Numbered from the stretch's first letter, positions 1 to 39,002 are shown. The stretch is 64,000 bases of DNA from an uncultured Erysipelotrichaceae bacterium (GCA_945877255.1 CAMCRE010000004.1:26484-90483); one strand, 5' to 3'. Numbers and translations: made by a program. Notes: a model not told the origin generated them from the sequence alone.

Positions 1-421
1 TTAACACTTGTGCCGATGTATTTTTAATGAAAACTAACGGATAACTATTCATAAAGCCGTATTTTTCACCATAATCAATTACCATTTGCAACTGTTGAAA
101 ACTACAAAAAACTATCATAGTTGGTGCTTTATTTTTTTCTTTTGGCTCTTTTATCAACATCTTACTACAAAAGTGCATAAACTCTGGAATTTTAAAATTA
201 TGGTCTGTATCAAAAAATGATTTGTTAGATTTGTCGCTTTCTCCTTTTGTGTTATCTCCGTCGATATACCATTCTGGATTACTTGCATAAGCGTTTTTGC
301 CTAAATTATACGGAATATCTGCTATAACTAATTTCGCTTTAGGTATATGGTATCTTTTATAATTTTGAAAATGGTCATTAAATAATTCACATTTCAATTT
401 TCTTTTCTCATTATTTGTCAT
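1..421 (-). CDS. DNA N6/N4 amino-methyltransferase-like protein, 3' end off window
   Basis: Unlisted ORF. ATG 421..419 overlaps (ATGA) the stop of ORF 418..678. Translation MTNNEKRKLKCELFNDHFQNYKRYHIPKAKLVIADIPYNLGKN has a D-I-P-Y variant of the DPPY motif near the N-terminus. Confidence 0.5.
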   Translation of the reverse strand, partial: MTNNEKRKLKCELFNDHFQNYKRYHIPKAKLVIADIPYNLGKNAYASNPEWYIDGDNTKGESDKSNKSFFDTDHNFKIPEFMHFCSKMLIKEPKEKNKAPTMIVFCSFQQLQMVIDYGEKYGFMNSYPLVFIKNTSAQVL

Positions 422-678
422 TGTTCTATTTCCCTTTCTTTAACAATTGAACCAAACACTTTATTGCCGTCAATAACAGGCTCAAAAATTGGGAATGCTT
501 TATCAACGGCTTTTTTTGGGTTTTTAGCACTAACAATTTTTAATTCATTTGTTAAATTATTTCTTACTGCATAATATCCACTTTCTAAATATAAATATTC
601 AAAATTTTCAAATACTTTATTTTTAAATTTAATATCATCTAATAATCTTAATTTATTGCCTATTTCTAATAATTCCAT
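418..678 (-). CDS. Hypothetical phage protein (86 aa)
   Basis: ORF track; tightly packed in the minus-strand phage operon and ATGA-coupled to the downstream MTase. Confidence 0.55.
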   Translation of the reverse strand: MELLEIGNKLRLLDDIKFKNKVFENFEYLYLESGYYAVRNNLTNELKIVSAKNPKKAVDKAFPIFEPVIDGNKVFGSIVKEREIEQ

Positions 679-681
679 TTT

Positions 682-1194
682 TTACTCCTCAATTTCTAGT
701 ATGTATTTTTTCCAGTTATCTACACCTATGTGTTCTAAACATTCTTTTGCTTTTTCTTCGCTACTAAAATATAACCAACTTGGTAATGTTTGCACGACTG
801 TTTCAATAGCTATATTTGTATCTCCAAAAAAATAAACATATTCTACATAATAGTTTTCATTGTCAAATATAAACCTATAATCATCGTTTTCATATTTCCA
901 TTTTTTAATTTTTGCGATTGTTTTTCTTTTTCCAAGCTCAAATTCTGCGTCTTTTTCAGTCAAAAATGCGTTACCTCGTTCTAAGTCTTCTTTTAAACCC
1001 TCGACAAAATACTTCTCATTAGTACAATCTTTTTTAATTTTTTGTGAATAACGACGTGTTATTAAATAATACTCATCAATACTTTTTATATCGTAAATTG
1101 CTTTAGGTAATTCAATCAATTCAAAATCGCTATTTAATTCGTATTTTATACCGTCTATTTCATAAACTTTTCCAACTTCTAATTTCATTGTCAT
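682..1194 (-). CDS. Hypothetical phage protein (170 aa)
   Basis: ORF track; RBS AAGGAG upstream; no family recognised. Confidence 0.6.
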   Translation of the reverse strand: MTMKLEVGKVYEIDGIKYELNSDFELIELPKAIYDIKSIDEYYLITRRYSQKIKKDCTNEKYFVEGLKEDLERGNAFLTEKDAEFELGKRKTIAKIKKWKYENDDYRFIFDNENYYVEYVYFFGDTNIAIETVVQTLPSWLYFSSEEKAKECLEHIGVDNWKKYILEIEE

Positions 1195-1455
1195 ATATCT
1201 CCTTAAATTTATAATAATCTTCTATTCCACATTGGCAATATTCATTACGTATTGCTTTAATGTTATACCCGTATTTATTTACATAGCGTTTTAATAGCGT
1301 TTTTAACGCATTTAAGCCGTGTTTTTTATTTGGGTACTTGCAATACCTCGAACCGCATTTTATCCCTCCAGCGTTGTTATTTTGTTGCCATAATCGGCTT
1401 TTTCCGTTTCCTGTTTCTAATCGGAACGTTGCGTTGAATAATGCCTGAAATTTTA
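1160..1455 (-). other. Start-less ~98-codon open frame (-1 relative to ORF 1453..1683), Cys-rich (CGSRYC...CQCG)
   Basis: Hand translation gives VKFQALFNATFRLETGNGKSRLWQQNNNAGGIKCGSRYCKYPNKKHGLNALKTLLKRYVNKYGYNIKAIRNEYCQCGIEDYYKFKEIYDNEIRSWKSL*. There is no ATG/GTG/TTG in frame. It is entered from the upstream ORF by a -1 shift at A_AAA_AAG. Confidence 0.5.
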
Positions 1456-1683
1456 CTTTTTTTCTTTTAAATTTTTTATTTCAGTATTTAATTTTTTGAT
1501 CGTATCTTCTTTAAAGTTTAGTGTTGTATCGTATTGTGCTTGTGTTTCAATTAATTTGTTCTTTAATTGATGATTTTCGTGTTTTAACTTTAAATTTGCC
1601 ATAATTCCGTTAAATAGTACATATGCTATCGTTAAAACAAATAATGTAGCTATTAATAATCTTTCTATTTTAATTTTTTTCAT
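1453..1683 (-). CDS. Membrane-anchored coiled-coil phage protein (76 aa), possible 0-frame product of a frameshift pair
   Basis: ORF track; N-terminal TM then heptad-like K/E/L-rich tail. It ends GAA AAA AAG TAA. Confidence 0.6.
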   Translation of the reverse strand: MKKIKIERLLIATLFVLTIAYVLFNGIMANLKLKHENHQLKNKLIETQAQYDTTLNFKEDTIKKLNTEIKNLKEKK

Positions 1684-1685
1684 GT

Positions 1686-2060
1686 TTACTCCTCCTTTAT
1701 ACTTAAAAATTCTTTATTTTCGTATATGTTGCCAATAACTTCTAGATAGTCAGCACAATCAGGATCTAACCTAATAGAAACATTGTCGATTATAGCCCTA
1801 TACTCGCCGTAACGATTTCCAATATATCCGATTTCTTCATCAATTATATCTTTTACAATATCGCCATTAAATATAGCTTTGCCACATTCATCAAAAAATC
1901 CTGTATGATAGCTTATTAAATATTGATTGCTATCTAACATTTCTAAATGGTGGTCAAATTTAAAGATATTACCTTTACTATCTGTTAAAAATTTAATTCC
2001 ACTAGCGTCATCATCATATATAAATATTTTATTCATTTTATCGTAAATCCTAAATTTCAT
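1686..2060 (-). CDS. YopX-family phage protein
   Basis: N-terminal MKFRIYDK and C-terminal EVIGNIYENKEFL resemble the YopX family signature. Confidence 0.7.
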   Translation of the reverse strand: MKFRIYDKMNKIFIYDDDASGIKFLTDSKGNIFKFDHHLEMLDSNQYLISYHTGFFDECGKAIFNGDIVKDIIDEEIGYIGNRYGEYRAIIDNVSIRLDPDCADYLEVIGNIYENKEFLSIKEE

Positions 2061-2090
2061 GATTGCTCCTAACTGTTAAAAAACATATAT

Positions 2091-2294
2091 TTAAGTAGTT
2101 GATTTCCCATAGTCTTGGGATAGTGTCTTGATATATTTCTTGATATATTTCTCTATTCGTTTAATAGTATAATCTCGGAGTGCGTTATTAAAATATCCTA
2201 TTGAATTAGCACGTTGTTCATGATGAATTTCTATTTGTGAAATAGGTCGCTTAAAAAATAAATTTTGTTTTTCTAGTTTTTTATTTTTGTCCAT
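2091..2294 (-). CDS. Hypothetical phage protein (67 aa)
   Basis: ORF track only. Confidence 0.45.
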   Translation of the reverse strand: MDKNKKLEKQNLFFKRPISQIEIHHEQRANSIGYFNNALRDYTIKRIEKYIKKYIKTLSQDYGKSTT

Positions 2295-2313
2295 AATTTA
2301 CTCCTAACTGCTT

Positions 2314-2520
2314 TTATTTTGTTTCGCCTTTTCTGTATGAACCTTGAATATTAAAGAAATTGTTAAAATCACGTCTATTTACTAATCCTGCACGTACTTT
2401 AACACTATGCGGGTTTTGTTTTTGAATTTCTTTAAAATATCTATACATTGTGCTTTTACTCATCGGAATAATTTTTATTGCTTCGTTAATATCTAAATAA
2501 TCTGGTATAATATACGTCAT
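2314..2520 (-). CDS. Small helix-turn-helix DNA-binding protein (excisionase/HTH_17-like)
   Basis: INEAIKIIPMSKSTMYRYFKEI HTH-like segment; RBS AAAGGGGGTG. Confidence 0.5.
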   Translation of the reverse strand: MTYIIPDYLDINEAIKIIPMSKSTMYRYFKEIQKQNPHSVKVRAGLVNRRDFNNFFNIQGSYRKGETK

Positions 2521-2561
2521 GCTTACACCCCCTTTCTGTTTTGTGCTATAATATACTTGTA

Positions 2562-2723
2562 TTAATGGTTGTCTTTATAATTATCTTTTTCGTTTATTTC
2601 TGCTCTTATTAGTGATAATATAAAGGTATTCAATTCTCTTATTACTCTTTCATAGTGTAGTATTGTATGAATATGTTTTATCATTAATACAATAAATGCT
2701 ATCAATAATAGTGTAAATTTCAT
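2562..2723 (-). CDS. Small membrane protein (53 aa, below track cut-off)
   Basis: Hand translation MKFTLLLIAFIVLMIKHIHTILHYERVIRELNTFILSLIRAEINEKDNYKDNH. Its ATG overlaps the TAA of the upstream ORF (TAATG). Confidence 0.45.
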   Translation of the reverse strand: MKFTLLLIAFIVLMIKHIHTILHYERVIRELNTFILSLIRAEINEKDNYKDNH

Positions 2724-2908
2724 TATTCGTACCTTTCAAATATTGAAAACATCTTATCAATGAATTTATCACTGTTATTGTATTCAAGAAAATTGTGGAA
2801 ATTTCTTTTTATGAGTTTCATACAATTTTCTTTTTTCTTTAACTGTTCTTTTAAAATTCTATTTTCTTCTTGCAATTGTTGTAACTCATTTTTATTATTG
2901 TTTTTCAT
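2723..2908 (-). CDS. Hypothetical coiled-coil phage protein (61 aa)
   Basis: ORF track; overlaps the antirepressor 3' end. Confidence 0.45.
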   Translation of the reverse strand: MKNNNKNELQQLQEENRILKEQLKKKENCMKLIKRNFHNFLEYNNSDKFIDKMFSIFERYE

Positions 2909-3653
2909 GTTCGATACGCTCCATATTTGGTAAGTGTCCTAATTCTTTTAATAAATCGTAAATAAATAATCTTCCCTTTTGTGTCCAATATGTATGCACT
3001 TTTACATGGTCGCAACCGTCAATTACTTGTGTTTTTGTTTGTGTATAGCCTAATCTTGCGTATTTTTGGTATAATATCCATATTCCATTTTGCTTGAACT
3101 GTACTTTTTGATTTTGCAATAACTCATTTAACCATTTTGCACTCTTGCCGTAATCTTTAGCTATCATTGTTACACTTACTAAATCTTTATTTTGTAAAAT
3201 TACATCATAATAGCACGCTTTAGGTTGCAACTCTGCTATCTGTTGTGTTTTTACTTTGTTTTCGATTTCCAACTTTTCATTCTCTTCAACTTTTAATAAT
3301 AACTGCTTTAATGCGTCCTTATATGTTGTCGGCAATAGTTGATTTTTGATTTTATTTTCTAATGTTTCGATGTATTTAATTACTGCTTTTCGCACTGCTT
3401 TACTTTCTCGCACTAATACTTGTTTTGCTTGTGATAATGTTAGAACGTACATAGGTCTTAACTCGCCTTTTTTGTCCTTATATTCAACCAAGGAAATTTT
3501 TCCTTCGTTAATTTCTTCTTCAAACTCACTTCTAATTATCTTTAATAAATCATAGTGTAGTAAGTTTGCCTTATTATCTGCCTTTCTAAAAATATTTATT
3601 TGTTCCATAAGTTCTAAACTTGTGATTGTATCTCTGTTTTGTAATTCTTGCAT
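2895..3653 (-). CDS. Phage antirepressor (Rha/ORF6N-like N-terminus + KilA-C-like C-terminus)
   Basis: ITSLELMEQINIFRK N-terminal region. The C-terminal MIAKDYGKSAKWLNELLQNQKVQFKQNGIWILYQKYARLGY resembles KilAC antirepressor domains. Confidence 0.7.
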   Translation of the reverse strand: MQELQNRDTITSLELMEQINIFRKADNKANLLHYDLLKIIRSEFEEEINEGKISLVEYKDKKGELRPMYVLTLSQAKQVLVRESKAVRKAVIKYIETLENKIKNQLLPTTYKDALKQLLLKVEENEKLEIENKVKTQQIAELQPKACYYDVILQNKDLVSVTMIAKDYGKSAKWLNELLQNQKVQFKQNGIWILYQKYARLGYTQTKTQVIDGCDHVKVHTYWTQKGRLFIYDLLKELGHLPNMERIEHEKQ

Positions 3654-3666
3654 TTTTTCTCCTTTC

Positions 3667-4406
3667 TTATTGTTTTAAAAGTTTTGTGTAAATTTCTCTT
3701 ATTAGTTCTAATGGAATATTAGAACGATTGTTATAACCTCTTAATTGACTAAAATGAATTTTCCCTGTTACTTTGTTGTTTCTTAATTTTAAATCAACAT
3801 TGCTTTTAAATTTTGTAGGCTTTTGTATTTCATAATCATAAGCACTGTAAAACGTTAAATTTTCGTATGGTATTTTAAAGCCTAATATTTTATCAATGTA
3901 CGCCCATATTCGCCCATATGCGGGGTTTTCTATTACATAATATTTAGGTTTATACCTTTTTATTATTTCTATTGTGTTGAATATACATAGTTCTCCATTT
4001 ATTCTTGTGATTAATTGTTTGAGTGGCTTATATTGTGTATTTTTAAAGTCTTTATAATCTCTAATAGTAAATTGGCTTAATGGTAATTGACTTTCAAATA
4101 AACTGTTCAAATCTTCTTTTTTCCAACAAGCATTACCACAACTTAAAGCACTTGCTAAACTCCAACTTTCACATGGTGGACTTGCTATTATTAAATCGGG
4201 GGGGGTAATTCATCTAACACTTCAAATATCGGGTTATCCTTTCCTGTTATTGTGTATTGTGCTAAATTTAGATTAATAAAATCACTGTTTTTATTTTCTT
4301 TATCTAAACCGATAGAATATAGTTCTATTTCTTTAAAATCTTTCGCAGCTTTTTTATAACAACCATTGCCACTATCAAATAACGCCCAAACTATAAATTT
4401 TTTTAT
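3667..4406 (-). pseudogene. C5-cytosine DNA methyltransferase-like gene, frame broken in a C8 (plus-strand G8) run; ATA where the ATG is expected
   Basis: Upstream frame reads IKKFIVWALFDSGNGCYKK (FxGxG motif I) up to ...DELPPPI*. The next frame continues DLIIASPPCESWS (PC motif IV) and YVIENP (ENV-like). The run lies at 4198..4205; C9 or C6 would restore the frame. Confidence 0.6.
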
Positions 4407-4424
4407 ATTGTGTTCTCCTTTCTT

Positions 4425-4652
4425 CTAATCTTCGTTATCGTCAAAGATTGTCAAGTCTACTTTTCTATCAATAACTTTAAAACTTTCTAAAATGCTTTGC
4501 ATTTCGTTTTGCGTGAATTTCTTGCTATTGATTTTTTTAGCAACTGCATTTGGTGTTTTGTTTATTATTTTTGATAAATCTTCTGTTGTTAATCCGTAAG
4601 TTGTCATAAAGGAACGCAACTTGTGATTAACTACTTTATTCTTTATTTCCAT
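4425..4652 (-). CDS. Cro/XRE-like HTH regulator (75 aa)
   Basis: HTH segment TTYGLTTEDLSKIINKTPNAVAKKIN; divergent from the CI-like repressor. Confidence 0.7.
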   Translation of the reverse strand: MEIKNKVVNHKLRSFMTTYGLTTEDLSKIINKTPNAVAKKINSKKFTQNEMQSILESFKVIDRKVDLTIFDDNED

Positions 4653-4703
4653 TTTCCACTCCTTTCTGTTGATTTTTGTTATTCTTTTTTTACCAACGCA
4701 AAT

Positions 4704-4733
4704 AGTATATCACATTTTAAAATCATTTGTCAA
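4704..4733 (-). promoter_or_regulatory. Early (Cro-side) promoter
   Basis: Minus strand TTGACA (4733..4728), 18 nt spacer, TGaTATACT (-10 at 4709..4704). Confidence 0.6.
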
Positions 4734-4780
4734 CGATTTTTATCATTTTTGTATTTTTCTTGTTTACTTTTTCTTTTTTT

Positions 4781-4802
4781 GTACTTTTTAGGTACTTTTT
4801 AG
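4781..4802. repeat. Tandem 11-bp repeat GTACTTTTTAG x2 (candidate operator sites)
   Basis: Exact tandem copies at 4781..4791 and 4792..4802. Related GTAtTTTTc and GTTTACTTTTT lie at about 4751 and 4762, between the two divergent promoters. Confidence 0.5.
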
Positions 4803-4831
4803 TTGATTTTGTAAACAACAAAATGTATAAT
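4803..4831 (+). promoter_or_regulatory. Repressor (CI-side) promoter
   Basis: TTGATT (4803..4808), 17 nt spacer, TATAAT (4826..4831). Confidence 0.55.
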
Positions 4832-4857
4832 AAAGATACAAAAAAGAGGTGGATAAT

Positions 4858-5457
4858 ATGGAAAGTTTCGGTTATAAGTTAAAAATAGAACGTGTTAAAA
4901 AACGTTTAACACTAGAACAATTAGCACAAAAATTAAACGTAACACGACAAGCAATTAGTATGTGGGAAAAAAACAATAGAATACCTAGCGACTTAATGTT
5001 CCGTAAAATAGAAAATGTTTTAAAACTTCCTAATGGTTTTTTTGATGCCGATTATCAAGAGATGCCAGAAAACACTATCCCTGTTTTAGGATATGCAACT
5101 GCTGGACTTTTAACAGAACAATACGAGCAAGACTTAGGATATCTTGAAGTACCTAAAAAATACACTGATACACTTAAATATATGTGTGTTAAAGTTTCGG
5201 GTGATAGTATGGATAAATATCTGCAAGACGGCTCATACGCTATATTTAATAAGCTAGCAAGTTATTACAACAATCAAATTGTATTAGTTGAAGTTAATAG
5301 AGAAACAACGATAAAACGCTTTACAGAAAACGGCAACCACATTATATTATTCCCACAATCAAACAATCCAGAACACTTGCCGATTTTCGTTGAGAAAAAT
5401 AAAATTGAAGATTTTAAAATATACGGTGTACTTGTATATAGTTGCTATGAATGGTAA
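4858..5457 (+). CDS. CI/LexA-like phage repressor (XRE HTH + S24 peptidase domain)
   Basis: LTLEQLAQKLNVTRQAISMWEKN HTH; VSGDSM Ser and TIKRF Lys of the S24 dyad. Start moved to ATG 4858 behind RBS AGAGGTGG (the track starts at GTG 4849). Confidence 0.85.
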   Translation: MESFGYKLKIERVKKRLTLEQLAQKLNVTRQAISMWEKNNRIPSDLMFRKIENVLKLPNGFFDADYQEMPENTIPVLGYATAGLLTEQYEQDLGYLEVPKKYTDTLKYMCVKVSGDSMDKYLQDGSYAIFNKLASYYNNQIVLVEVNRETTIKRFTENGNHIILFPQSNNPEHLPIFVEKNKIEDFKIYGVLVYSCYEW

Positions 5458-5461
5458 TAAA

Positions 5462-5493
5462 AAAAAACACTAGATTAATTTCTAGTGTTTTTT
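5462..5493. terminator. Bidirectional intrinsic terminator between convergent genes
   Basis: AAAAAACACTAG-attaattt-CTAGTGTTTTTT: a perfect 12-bp stem with A-run and T-run flanks. Confidence 0.8.
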
Positions 5494-5881
5494 ATTCGTT
5501 ATGTACTTTGTGGCAACAATCAATTTTTGTTAAAACAAAATAATTGTTTTCAGTGTTATAATAACCAAATATTCGGAATGCTGTTCTATCTTTTCCGTAA
5601 TGGTGTAAAGTGGTGTTTATGTTTCCTTTTTGATAATATTCTTTTTTTCCTTTTGTTCTTAAAAATCTTTTATCAACTTCTGAAATGGTTAAGTTTTTGC
5701 CAACTGTATCATCAAGAAATTTTTGAAATTCTTTATAACCATTATGTTTATTGATACACGCAAAATTATATTGTTTTTCTAATTCGGAAGTTATAGCAAT
5801 AATAAAGGGGTAATCCTTATTATTTGCTAAAATTATCCCCTTTTCAGTTTTTTTATTCTCTGTTAATTTAGAACGTATCAA
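5492..5881 (-). CDS. Unclassified 129-aa protein, candidate toxin partner of the Panacea-domain protein
   Basis: Lies 1 nt downstream of the DUF4065 gene. Basic; the C-terminus LHHYGKDRTAFRIFGYYNTENNYFVLTKIDCCHKVHNE is only vaguely RelE/ParE-like. Confidence 0.5.
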   Translation of the reverse strand: MIRSKLTENKKTEKGIILANNKDYPFIIAITSELEKQYNFACINKHNGYKEFQKFLDDTVGKNLTISEVDKRFLRTKGKKEYYQKGNINTTLHHYGKDRTAFRIFGYYNTENNYFVLTKIDCCHKVHNE

Positions 5882-5882
5882 T

Positions 5883-6332
5883 CTAATCTCCAGTATATAT
5901 TGATTTGTAATATTTTCTCATCACTCGTGTATCAATATTTTTATTCGAACGTGCAAAAGTTGGTAATCCTTTACGTGCTTTTTTCCATGGTTCTTCATCA
6001 TGTGTCAACATTTCTAACTCATTACCGCTTTTATCTCCATAAGTACACCATACACTTTCAAGTAATCCTATTTCTTCATCGGTAAAAATGTTAGAGTTAT
6101 CATTATCTTTTTTTTCAATAGTTATCCAACCGTGATTTTTATATTTGTTATACAAGTCAACGTTAACAGGTCCATGCACCCATGCTTGAAATTGGCAATT
6201 TTCTATAACATTTCTATTCAATAGTGCGTGTCCCCATGCAAAATAATAATAACATAATTTTTGCACCTTTTTATGTGGCATTGCTTCTTTATGTAAAAAA
6301 TAATTTGCTACATCAAAAATTGTAATACACAT
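5883..6332 (-). CDS. Panacea (DUF4065, SocA-like) domain antitoxin
   Basis: ANYFL...KVQKLCYYYFAWGHALL...FQAWVHGPVNVDLYNKYK matches the remembered DUF4065 pattern. Confidence 0.75.
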   Translation of the reverse strand: MCITIFDVANYFLHKEAMPHKKVQKLCYYYFAWGHALLNRNVIENCQFQAWVHGPVNVDLYNKYKNHGWITIEKKDNDNSNIFTDEEIGLLESVWCTYGDKSGNELEMLTHDEEPWKKARKGLPTFARSNKNIDTRVMRKYYKSIYTGD

Positions 6333-6396
6333 AGTTATAGCCCCCCTTACTTTAAATAAATTATATCATTTTCATTTTACTATTTCAAGCATTAGT

Positions 6397-7404
6397 TTAT
6401 TTTCTTTCATTCACATATTCTAACACTTGTAATATCTCATGTTTTTTATCTCTAAATAAATGTTTATAAGTACTTTCTAACATCGCAACAGTATGCCCCA
6501 TGTGTTTTGCTATATTATCTTTGTCGCAATATCCTAATACCTCATAACTATATTCAATTAAATTACTTGCGTGTGTGTGCCTTAAATCATGAGGTGTAAA
6601 TCCTGCTTTATTACTGCGTAAAATTTTCGTAATATTTTCATCATATATTTTTTGTGCTGTACCAAATAAAAATCCGTCTTTTACATAAATCTGTCGGTCG
6701 ATAATTTCTCGCATTCTTTTTGTTATTGGTATTTCTCTTACACTGTTTTTACTCTTTAGCGTTTCCCATTTTTTGCCGTCAAGTTGCCTATCAATCACGA
6801 TATGATTTTCATATATTCTATCAAATGTAATAGATAGGCATTCATTAATTCTTAATCCACTATCAAGCAAGAAAAAAAGTATATCTATAACGTTGATGTT
6901 TTTGAATTTTGCACCTTGTAATTTTAAAATCATATCATCAGTAACTGATACATATTTTTTTTGTTTTTCTTTTTTTGGTAATAATAAAAAGTCTGCGTAT
7001 TTTTTGTTTAAGTATTGATATTTATACGCCCAATTTAAAACGGTTTTAATTTTATGAAAATAAGATGTTTTTTTTACTAATTCATTAAGATACACAATAT
7101 TAATTTTTTCAATGTATGTATCGTTTTGCAAAATTATTTTTTCCAAACTATTGTATGATGATAATGTATTGTTTTTTAATTTATTATTTTGTACATAGTA
7201 ATCTACTAACTCAGAAAAAAGCATTCTATTATTAATAATTTGTTTGCTCTCTAAATCGTTTTTGTATTCTTTATCAAATAAAATAGCTTTTTTCTTGCTT
7301 GTTATATCCGTTTGTTTTTGATAGTTTTTATATGTTCCGTCAATTGTTTTATATTTGCCATAAACAATGAATGTTTTTGTTTTTTCATTTAATTTAATTG
7401 CCAT
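6397..7404 (-). CDS. int: Tyrosine site-specific integrase
   Basis: GLRINE (Arg), HDLRHTHAS (H-x-x-R), GHTVAMLESTYKHL (His/Tyr) catalytic pattern. Confidence 0.9.
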   Translation of the reverse strand: MAIKLNEKTKTFIVYGKYKTIDGTYKNYQKQTDITSKKKAILFDKEYKNDLESKQIINNRMLFSELVDYYVQNNKLKNNTLSSYNSLEKIILQNDTYIEKINIVYLNELVKKTSYFHKIKTVLNWAYKYQYLNKKYADFLLLPKKEKQKKYVSVTDDMILKLQGAKFKNINVIDILFFLLDSGLRINECLSITFDRIYENHIVIDRQLDGKKWETLKSKNSVREIPITKRMREIIDRQIYVKDGFLFGTAQKIYDENITKILRSNKAGFTPHDLRHTHASNLIEYSYEVLGYCDKDNIAKHMGHTVAMLESTYKHLFRDKKHEILQVLEYVNERK

Positions 7405-7455
7405 AACTTACCACTCCTTTATTTACATTTTACTGCAAAATTGCTAAAACGTCAA

Positions 7456-7478
7456 TTTTTTATGGTTTTTTTATGGTT
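7456..7478. repeat. Tandem TTTTTATGGTT repeat next to int (possible arm-type site)
   Basis: TTTTTATGGTT at 7456..7466 and 7468..7478 (period 12), in the int-to-junction spacer. Confidence 0.35.
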
Positions 7479-7523
7479 TTAGTTTTGAAAAGTGGCTTTT
7501 TAATTATGTTTTTTATCGTTTTT

Positions 7524-7934
7524 TTATTCCCCTTTTAAATACGAAAATTTAAGTTTTGGTTTATCAAAATAATCAGCCATTTTTACACAATACGCATTAA
7601 ATAAACTAACTGCATATTTTTCTAGAATAACTCTTAAATATTTTTTAATATCGGTATTTTGTGGAATAAATATTGTGTTGTCATCAATGAAAAAACGATC
7701 ACTTTCAACTACATTATAATAATTTCCAAAAACTCTTACTTTCTCATTAATTTCATATTTATTAGAAAATTGAACTTGTTTTTGAAGTTGCTTTAAAATC
7801 CAATCTTTTTTACTATCCACAAAATTTTGAATCGTCGCAAAAGGCATATTAACTGGTGCAGTTACAATAATTTCTTGATTTTTTATTTTTAAATACATAT
7901 TTTTAATGTTTTTTCGTTCTAACTTAAAATTCAT
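7524..7934 (-). pseudogene. N-terminal fragment of a DUF45/YgjP-like (M48-type) metal-dependent hydrolase, cut by the prophage
   Basis: 136 aa ending ...KPKLKFSYLKGE*. The family normally continues with an RWGSC segment and an HExxH domain, and neither is present. The integrase lies where the 3' half should be. Confidence 0.6.
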
Positions 7935-38527: not shown

Positions 38528-38795
38528 ATAAAATAAAAATATCGTCCCTTTACTAATAAAGGACGATTTAAATCGCGATACCACCTTTGTTTATAAATAA
38601 CTCACGTTATTTACCTCATCGACTACCAACATAGTCTAGCACTATAACGGGTGCACCCGTTATTTCCTACTATTACTTCAGAAATACAACTCAAAGACCA
38701 TATTCACTTATTCTTTATTATCTTGTTCCACCTAACCAAGACTCTCTATAAATTCCAAACAAGTTACTCTTCTTATCAACGTTATTTTTATTTTA
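38528..38795 (-). promoter_or_regulatory. T-box riboswitch leader, probable Met (AUG) specifier
   Basis: Stem I elements GATAAGAAGAGTA, AGAGAG, GGTGGAA. GAAU-AUG-G candidate specifier at 38701..38699. T-box AAAGGTGGTATCGCGA (38590..38572). Terminator ATCGTCCTTTA/TAAAGGGACGAT followed by ATTTTTATTTT. Confidence 0.8.
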
Positions 38796-38925: not shown

Positions 38926-39002
38926 TGGCGTCCACGAAGGGATTCGAACCCCTGACCGTACGCTTAGAAGGCGTATGCTCTATCCAGCTGAGCTACGTGG
39001 AC
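38926..39002 (-). tRNA. tRNA-Arg (anticodon UCU), CCA encoded
   Basis: 77-nt cloverleaf. Acceptor GTCCACG/CGTGGAC, D stem GCTC/GAGC, anticodon stem TACGC/GCGTA, loop CT-TCT-AA, T-loop TTCGAAT, 3' GCCA. Confidence 0.9.

Follow-up and report, generated by a model that had tools for sequence, protein, structure and literature searches.

What do two small genes lying between the integrase gene and the repressor gene of a prophage encode, and do they act together as a toxin–antitoxin (TA) pair? The question is raised by a 64,000-nucleotide (nt) stretch of DNA from an uncultured Erysipelotrichaceae bacterium (GCA_945877255.1 CAMCRE010000004.1:26484-90483), hereafter the window, to which all coordinates below refer unless another contig is named; the prophage occupies one end of it, positions 1-7404. 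A first-pass annotation, made from the sequence alone, proposed that the upstream protein of the pair is a Panacea-domain antitoxin and its partner the cognate toxin. The two genes, panA and panT, are as follows.

5883-6332, minus strand: panA, ATG start, standalone Panacea (DUF4065) protein of 149 amino acids (aa), putative antitoxin, recognised by PF13274
5492-5881, minus strand: panT, TTG start, MAG6450-family protein of 129 aa (PanT cluster T1), putative RelE-fold toxin, recognised by NF046006

Our analysis indicates that panAT is most likely a two-gene PanAT type II TA module, a moron within the prophage's lysogeny region. We further consider it probable that PanT is a RelE-fold, ribosome-dependent mRNA endonuclease, which is blocked by a directly bound standalone Panacea protein and expressed with it from the pair's own promoter in the lysogen.

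Family membership of PanA and PanT

PanA matched the Pfam profile PF13274 (SocA_Panacea) over its whole length (positions 1-113 of 113; E=2.9e-17; 64 bits against a cut-off of 25.7), so that the profile check did not place the protein outside the DUF4065/Panacea family to which the first-pass annotation had assigned it. The protein also matched phrog_1281 (E=4.4e-38). Homology searches retrieved 222 homologues, and PF13274 was present in 120/120 among the matches listed. The AlphaFold2 model of PanA (predicted local distance difference test score, pLDDT, 95.9) formed a single compact domain with no added helix-turn-helix (HTH), PAD1 or zinc-binding domain, and a fold search of the PDB with this model returned the C-terminal domain of DarG (7yk3) as the sole structural neighbour.

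The partner had been regarded as unclassified, which proved wrong: PanT matched the NCBIfam model NF046006, "MAG6450 family protein", over all of its positions (1-103 of 103; E=2.8e-29) and scored 101.7 bits against a cut-off of 40. Profile searches recovered 147 family proteins from a 5.8-billion-protein set and 140 clusters among 1.84 billion representatives at 50% identity; the clusters were nearly all single-domain proteins of approximately 115-145 aa. Because the toxin family has this many relatives, panA and panT are real genes rather than chance open reading frames (ORFs). Named members of the family came from Streptococcus, Listeria, Lactococcus, lactobacilli, Vagococcus, Granulicatella, Parvimonas, Peptoniphilus, Helcococcus, and several Mycoplasma and Mycoplasmopsis species. 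Others were found on Caudoviricetes contigs and on contigs that one source assigns to Haemophilus parainfluenzae; if that attribution is correct, the module crossed from Bacillota into Proteobacteria.

The same family has been catalogued under another label. In the entries of Dataset S1 considered here, Kurata et al. (2022, PNAS; PMC8832971) list a predicted and taxonomically broad PanT cluster, T1, each member of which has an adjacent PanA. Entries of this cluster homologous to PanT include the proteins of Helcococcus sueciensis (WP_051177368), Loigolactobacillus bifermentans (WP_057903216), M. leachii (WP_013447797), and M. agalactiae 5632 (WP_013022263), together with those of M. mycoides capri GM12, M. 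yeatsii, L. nodensis, and Granulicatella. BLASTP comparisons of PanT gave 45% identity to the H. sueciensis protein (P0038; 3e-30), 35% to the M. agalactiae 5632 protein (P0276; 2e-19), and 42% to the M. mycoides family member (3e-27). A paper of 2026 (PMC13621843) called the M. mycoides orthologue, MMSYN1_0416, RelE-like. By sequence, PanT belongs to the T1/MAG6450 PanAT group, and the suggestion that it may represent a new PanT family did not hold. A recurring match of PanT to the prolactin receptor (E 0.06-0.3) was dismissed as a coincidence of short β-strands.

Conservation of the panA-panT pairing

We examined the pairing at 33 toxin-anchored loci by ORF analysis and on 80 viral contigs retrieved from PanA. 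A PanA homologue lay immediately upstream of the toxin gene on the same strand at 32 of the 33 toxin-anchored loci, and the genes flanking the pair differed completely between loci. On contigs with existing annotation, a PF13274 gene directly preceded a family member in Streptococcus prophages, where the pair followed holin and lysin genes. The pair was likewise located in islands flanked by IS1595 insertion sequences (IS), in a Bacillota metagenome-assembled genome beside a convergent CI-like HTH repressor and next to rpsF-ssb-rpsR, at a prophage end adjoining two serine recombinases, and on the M. mycoides chromosome between rnc and smc. Together with the 1-nt gap between the two genes in the window and the PF13274 match, these varied settings bear out the proposal of an antitoxin-first PanAT-type pair, and comparative evidence at the sequence level provides good support for reading the two proteins as an antitoxin and its cognate toxin.

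Individual loci provided further detail. In M. mycoides CP065582.1 (L037), the toxin homologue (4001-4387) and PanA (3546-3998) correspond to MMSYN1_0416 and MMSYN1_0417, respectively. In the loci L011-L014, the pair (3527-4402) lay between transposases of the IS1595 family and beside HTH regulators, with a zeta-toxin gene in L012.

Partner choice varied with the relatedness of PanA. On the viral contigs, PanAs at least approximately 46% identical to that of the window were nearly all followed by a toxin of approximately 125 aa from the MAG6450 family, and the ORF following more distant PanAs (approximately 38-47% identity) encoded either toxin relatives of 160-250 aa or unrelated proteins. 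Iterative searching joined these longer relatives to the 125-aa type. They start approximately 0-20 nt after PanA, share the core motif H...FR..G...FY..D..H, and often carry a C-terminal extension resembling a coiled coil; loci from IMG/VR encoding them include L066, L068, L072, L074, L076, L084, L088, L090, L092, L097, L099, L107, and L110, among others. No toxin relative was found at 20 of the 80 PanA-anchored loci, which had an unrelated downstream ORF (approximately 206 aa in L081, L087, and L089), a contig end, or no adjacent ORF called. The partners of the distant PanAs fit the partner swapping already described for Panacea.

The contig ended within approximately 4 kb of the pair at 17 of the 19 toxin-anchored IMG/VR loci, which fits a position of the pair at prophage ends, with the ends of viral contigs taken as inexact prophage borders. 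The integrase and repressor of the window, used as probes for the position of the pair in other loci, were too divergent as proteins to permit classification.

Predicted fold and conserved residues of PanT

Structural information on PanT was obtained from an AlphaFold2 model built on 65 sequences (pLDDT 83.4; predicted template modelling score, pTM, 0.73). Residues 1-20 were disordered and basic in this model, and residues 25-121 formed one strand-helix-helix-four-strand domain comprising a strand at 25-29, helices at 48-58 and 66-73, and strands at 81-85, 88-95, 103-109, and 114-121. The approximately 70 extra N-terminal residues described in the first-pass annotation are, beyond the disordered 20, part of this same domain, and the description was therefore mistaken.

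A Foldseek comparison of the model with the PDB retrieved toxins or TA complexes of the RelE/ParE superfamily as all 10 of the top 10 matches and as 25 of the top 30, which is in line with the faint RelE/ParE likeness previously suspected in the partner. The matches included Thermus thermophilus RelE, Mycobacterium tuberculosis RelE2 and RelE1, archaeal RelE, HigB2, HigB, YoeB, HP0892, and PfiT, with TM-scores normalised to the target reaching 0.5-0.63. The corresponding search of the viral structure library BFVD gave no informative match.

Conservation was assessed in 103 representatives of the family, down to 23% identity. H94 and R103 were invariant, and R75, G106, D121, and H124 were conserved in at least 90% of the sequences; D121 and H124 were also invariant in 52/52 wider phage-borne relatives. 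This pattern of conservation points to an active site in PanT. A C-terminal Asp/His arrangement is typical of RNases of the HigB type (residues D90 and H92) and the YafQ type (residues H50, H63, D67, and H87). The C-terminal Asp and His of PanT and the upstream His and Arg recall the sites of HigB and YafQ, in a comparison made by residue identity and not by superposition. Judged from the model, PanT most likely has a fold of the RelE/HigB type with an extra β-hairpin and a short, basic, disordered N-terminus.

Locus layout and expression signals

The two minus-strand ORFs between the integrase and the CI repressor, separated by 1 nt, were confirmed at the coordinates given above. The features surrounding them are as follows.

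6397-7404, minus strand: int, tyrosine integrase directly upstream of panAT (PF00589, E=3.7e-11; phrog_1 integrase, E=1.6e-39)
6360-6388, minus strand: predicted sigma-70-type promoter of the pair, TTGAAA-17 nt-TG-TATAAT, by consensus match and position
6341-6348, minus strand: Shine-Dalgarno sequence AAGGGGGG of panA, 8 nt before the ATG, read from the sequence
5887-5891, minus strand: GGAGA ribosome-binding site of panT, within the 3' end of panA and 5 nt before the TTG, read from the sequence
5462-5493, both strands: bidirectional intrinsic terminator common to panAT and the convergent repressor gene, overlapping the panT stop, by hairpin scan (inverted repeat I14)
4849-5457, plus strand: CI-like repressor (HTH_3 and S24 peptidase), convergent with panT (PF00717, E=2.4e-20; PF01381, E=3.3e-12; phrog_4, E=8.1e-33)
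4425-4652, minus strand: small Cro-like HTH protein, first gene of the leftward early operon and divergent from the repressor gene (HTH matches weak, none reaching the Pfam cut-off)

One base, 5882, separates the TAG stop of panA from the TTG start of panT. The TTG at 5881 is the sole in-frame ATG, GTG, or TTG ahead of the conserved core of panT, and a start at this codon retains the N-terminal "KLT" motif common to panT homologues. Translation of panT is likely coupled to that of panA because the GGAGA sequence sits inside the end of panA.

The predicted promoter of the pair lies 8 nt past the integrase stop and scored 11/12 with a TG extension in addition. This was the tied best score in the region 4300-7600, the other 11/12 site being located on the minus strand upstream of the Cro-like gene. 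Overall, 25 promoter-like sites were counted in this AT-rich region against 22.6 expected from shuffled sequence, which is not above expectation; for this reason, the assignment of 6360-6388 as the probable panAT promoter leans on match quality and position. The bidirectional terminator that had been noted at the end of the pair was verified: a 13-pair stem with a 6-nt loop, flanked by an A-run and a T-run, scored on both strands.

The Cro-like gene is followed by a gene for the anti-repressor Ant (phrog_63, E=4.1e-50) and by other small phage ORFs. The integrase, the CI-like repressor, the Cro-like protein, and Ant constitute a prophage lysogeny module around panAT, and these neighbours, along with the terminator, place the pair in a slot where morons are commonly carried. 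With the exception of cI, every prophage gene of the window lies on the minus strand: int, panAT, cro, a methyltransferase fragment, ant, and small ORFs. The small leftward genes reach the start of the window, indicating that the prophage extends beyond it and that the window holds its lysogeny and early end. The GC content is approximately 28%. A search for attachment (att) repeats in 1-7700 returned low-complexity matches only.

Some further observations concern the rest of the window. The methyltransferase fragment is a TTG-start ORF of 147 aa (3667-4110, minus strand) that matches positions 103-250 of 262 only in phrog_2882, a phage DNA methyltransferase (E=4.6e-57), and looks like an N-terminally truncated or split gene. 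The approximately 300 nt upstream of it (4111-4424) contain no sizeable ORF on the minus strand. The host part of the window carries a T-box leader (38556-38788, minus strand; 137 bits) and a tRNA-Arg(TCT) gene (38926-39002, minus strand), and a search of all 64 kb for rRNA found none.

Proposed mechanism

We propose that, in the lysogen, the pair would be transcribed from its own promoter just past the integrase gene, possibly with additional read-through from int, and that transcription would stop at the terminator common to the repressor gene. PanT would be made in smaller amounts than PanA, because panT appears to be translationally coupled and has a weak TTG start. By analogy with published standalone PanAs, PanA would bind the toxin directly and keep it inactive; Ernits et al. 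(2023; PMC10440598) found that standalone Panacea domains neutralise toxins directly and proposed a sensor role for them. PanT freed from PanA would halt growth through cleavage of mRNA on the ribosome, using H94, R103, D121, and H124. Toxicity, direct neutralisation, RNase chemistry, and ribosome dependence are thus properties that we infer for this pair. Its biological role may be prophage stabilisation, or abortive infection or superinfection exclusion.

Contrary evidence and alternative explanations

Several results weigh against the interpretation of PanT as a ribosome-dependent mRNA endonuclease held by PanA. The Foldseek matches of PanT in the PDB all had weak E-values (0.04 or higher), with TM-scores of 0.3-0.45 when normalised to the query. 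The Pfam models of RelE, ParE, HigB, YafQ, YoeB, and Gp49 matched 0/103 family members at E-values up to 0.1. Searches of PanT against Pfam, PHROGs, and PADLOC yielded nothing meaningful, and a profile search of PDB sequences yielded no match. In hhalign comparisons of the family profiles, a weak test, probabilities stayed below 2% for Escherichia coli RelE, YafQ, and YoeB, Proteus vulgaris HigB, and M. tuberculosis RelE2. PADLOC-DB 2.0 contained no defence-system match for PanT and, for PanA, only a marginal JetA match (E=0.0079). At the locus level, the sole exception to the pairing was found on a 2.5-kb contig of Mycoplasma sp. HU2014 (L005, 517-930), where an intact solo toxin homologue lacks an upstream PanA; it keeps the conserved His, Arg, Asp, and His, and the DNA upstream of it contains a divergent ORF on the other strand.

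Published data contribute further points on this side. For the one T1 member tested, from C. cadaveris, the cognate PanA gave no neutralisation in E. coli (Table S1, PMC8832971). Of the two homologues in JCVI-syn3.0, that of the toxin scores as quasi-essential and that of PanA as non-essential, which is the reverse of a classical TA system (PMC13621843). A transposon insertion at 87% of MAG6450, the M. agalactiae gene on which the family was founded, gave a viable mutant (PMC3179502); such a mutant is expected for a toxin gene and is uninformative on toxicity.

The alternative that survives best accepts the PanAT module and the fold but assigns PanT an activity other than mRNA cleavage at the ribosome, such as that of a ParE-like gyrase poison or of a ribosome-independent RNase or tRNase; we regard it as unlikely. 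RelE/ParE-fold proteins are described as either cutting RNA or poisoning gyrase (PMC10440598). The Foldseek matches of PanT do include ParE-type structures (PfiT and 9w3a), and no sequence profile puts the family in any RNase subfamily. However, entries for RelE, HigB, and YoeB far outnumber those for ParE among these matches, and the family retains a polar His/Arg/Asp/His set suited to acid–base catalysis. ParE toxins are not known to have such a set. The C. cadaveris T1 toxin was, moreover, labelled a predicted "mRNase" by its testers (Table S1, PMC8832971). Table S1 is the only source of this label, because the T1 rows of Dataset S1, among those examined, all carry only "NoTest", and the terms RelE, HigB, YafQ, and RNase occur there in the rows of other clusters.

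A second alternative, which we consider improbable, dispenses with growth arrest: PanT would be a factor that binds or processes RNA and has no toxicity, or else a RelE-like protein that has degenerated, and PanA would be its partner or regulator and not an antidote. This would accommodate the retention of a quasi-essential toxin homologue beside a dispensable PanA homologue in JCVI-syn3.0, the solo homologue of Mycoplasma sp. HU2014, and the finding of Kurata et al. that 8 of the 25 PanT candidates tested were non-toxic in E. coli (PMC8832971). It would also accommodate the phenotype of the MAG6450 transposon mutant, whose growth was scored as deficient when it was co-cultured with goat mammary epithelial cells, a polar effect not being excluded (PMC3179502). 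The C. cadaveris T1 member was, in contrast, toxic in E. coli (PMC8832971), and the syn3.0 phenotypes are suspected to reflect polar effects on smc (PMC13621843). The organisation of the pair also argues for a TA module: like TA and defence modules, it is found on mobile DNA, including prophages and IS-flanked islands, and its strict antitoxin-first layout with an overlap or a 1-nt gap is typical of type II systems.

Very improbable is a SocAB-like (type VI TA) arrangement in which PanA, acting as a protease adaptor, would hand the toxin over for degradation instead of binding and blocking it: Panacea is the SocA domain, but the match of PanA to the NCBIfam SocA equivalog NF047745 was partial and missed the cut-off (residues 8-89 only; E=6e-9; 35.8 bits against 190), PanT is unrelated to SocB, which is cluster T10 in Kurata et al. 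(PMC8832971), and the PanAT pairs tested form stable complexes as type II systems do.

Significance of the pair

The pair in the window is one more copy of a pair predicted as PanAT in 2022 and belonging to a family already named by NCBI, and on its own it matters little. The family, by contrast, is widespread, occurring in prophages of Streptococcus and Listeria, in lactobacilli, Peptoniphilaceae, and mycoplasmas, and it has been kept in JCVI-syn3.0. Our analysis unites three labels of this one family, namely NCBIfam MAG6450, PanT cluster T1, and the RelE-like MMSYN1_0416. It further offers four conserved residues as targets for mutation and indicates that close PanA relatives pair almost exclusively with a MAG6450-type toxin. 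Taken together, these results make a direct test of the neutralisation of a RelE-fold toxin by Panacea easy to design. We found no literature characterising T1 further, and the survey of mycoplasma TA systems by Hill et al. (2021) does not mention the MAG6450/PanA pair.

A broader proposition goes beyond the ribosome-dependent endonuclease and its bound Panacea. The T1/MAG6450 toxins might form a deep-branching lineage of the RelE superfamily that has gone unrecognised, distinguished by its extra β-hairpin and a His-Arg-Asp-His site. Silencing would come from a folded standalone Panacea protein and not from a DNA-binding antitoxin's disordered tail, and the pair might serve the prophage as a switch for abortive infection or superinfection exclusion in which Panacea is the sensor. 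We advance this tentatively and consider it somewhat unlikely in its entirety. If it is true, the family would be a widespread and concrete test case of the way in which Panacea neutralises a toxin of the RelE fold and releases it.

Comparison with known systems

Among PanAT systems validated previously, the PanT(D11):PanA pair of Bartonella choladocola and the toxFtsL:PanA pair of Gelidibacter mesophilus (PMC10440598) likewise use the Panacea domain alone as antitoxin, and neutralisation there is by direct contact. Their toxins, however, act on the membrane or on cell division and do not have the RelE fold.

The ribosome-dependent mRNA endonuclease toxins RelE, HigB, YafQ, and YoeB, which dominate the structural neighbours of PanT, share with its model the predicted strand-helix-helix-strands topology, as well as basic and His/Asp residues conserved on the final strands and in the C-terminal tail. 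PanT differs from them in having no detectable sequence-profile similarity, in its extra β-hairpin and disordered basic N-terminus of 20 residues, and in its partner, which is a globular Panacea protein and not a DNA-binding antitoxin of the RelB, HigA, or YefM type.

MMSYN1_0416 and MMSYN1_0417 of M. mycoides and JCVI-syn3.0 (PMC13621843) are an orthologous pair of a RelE-like and a DUF4065 protein in the layout rnc-panA-panT-smc. The RelE-like call, the extra β-hairpin, and the conserved C-terminal His reported for MMSYN1_0416 agree with our model and alignments of PanT. This pair, unlike that of the window, resides on a mollicute chromosome and not in a prophage, and the paper calls it "non-cognate" and draws no link to PanAT cluster T1.

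The closest correspondence is with cluster T1 and its PanAs (PMC8832971), which have the same PanA of approximately 150 aa without an N-terminal domain, the same antitoxin-first order with gaps from -17 to a few nt, and the same toxin family of approximately 125-130 aa; identity between PanT and the listed proteins of Helcococcus, L. bifermentans, M. leachii, M. agalactiae, and M. mycoides is 35-45%. The whole of T1 spans a much wider range of taxa and sequences than does the MAG6450 subfamily. Nothing essential distinguishes the pair of the window from this cluster except its position: it lies between int and cI of a prophage in a low-GC host (approximately 28% GC), whereas the T1-listed or retrieved relatives sit elsewhere, either past a lysin gene, within islands flanked by IS, or between rnc and smc.

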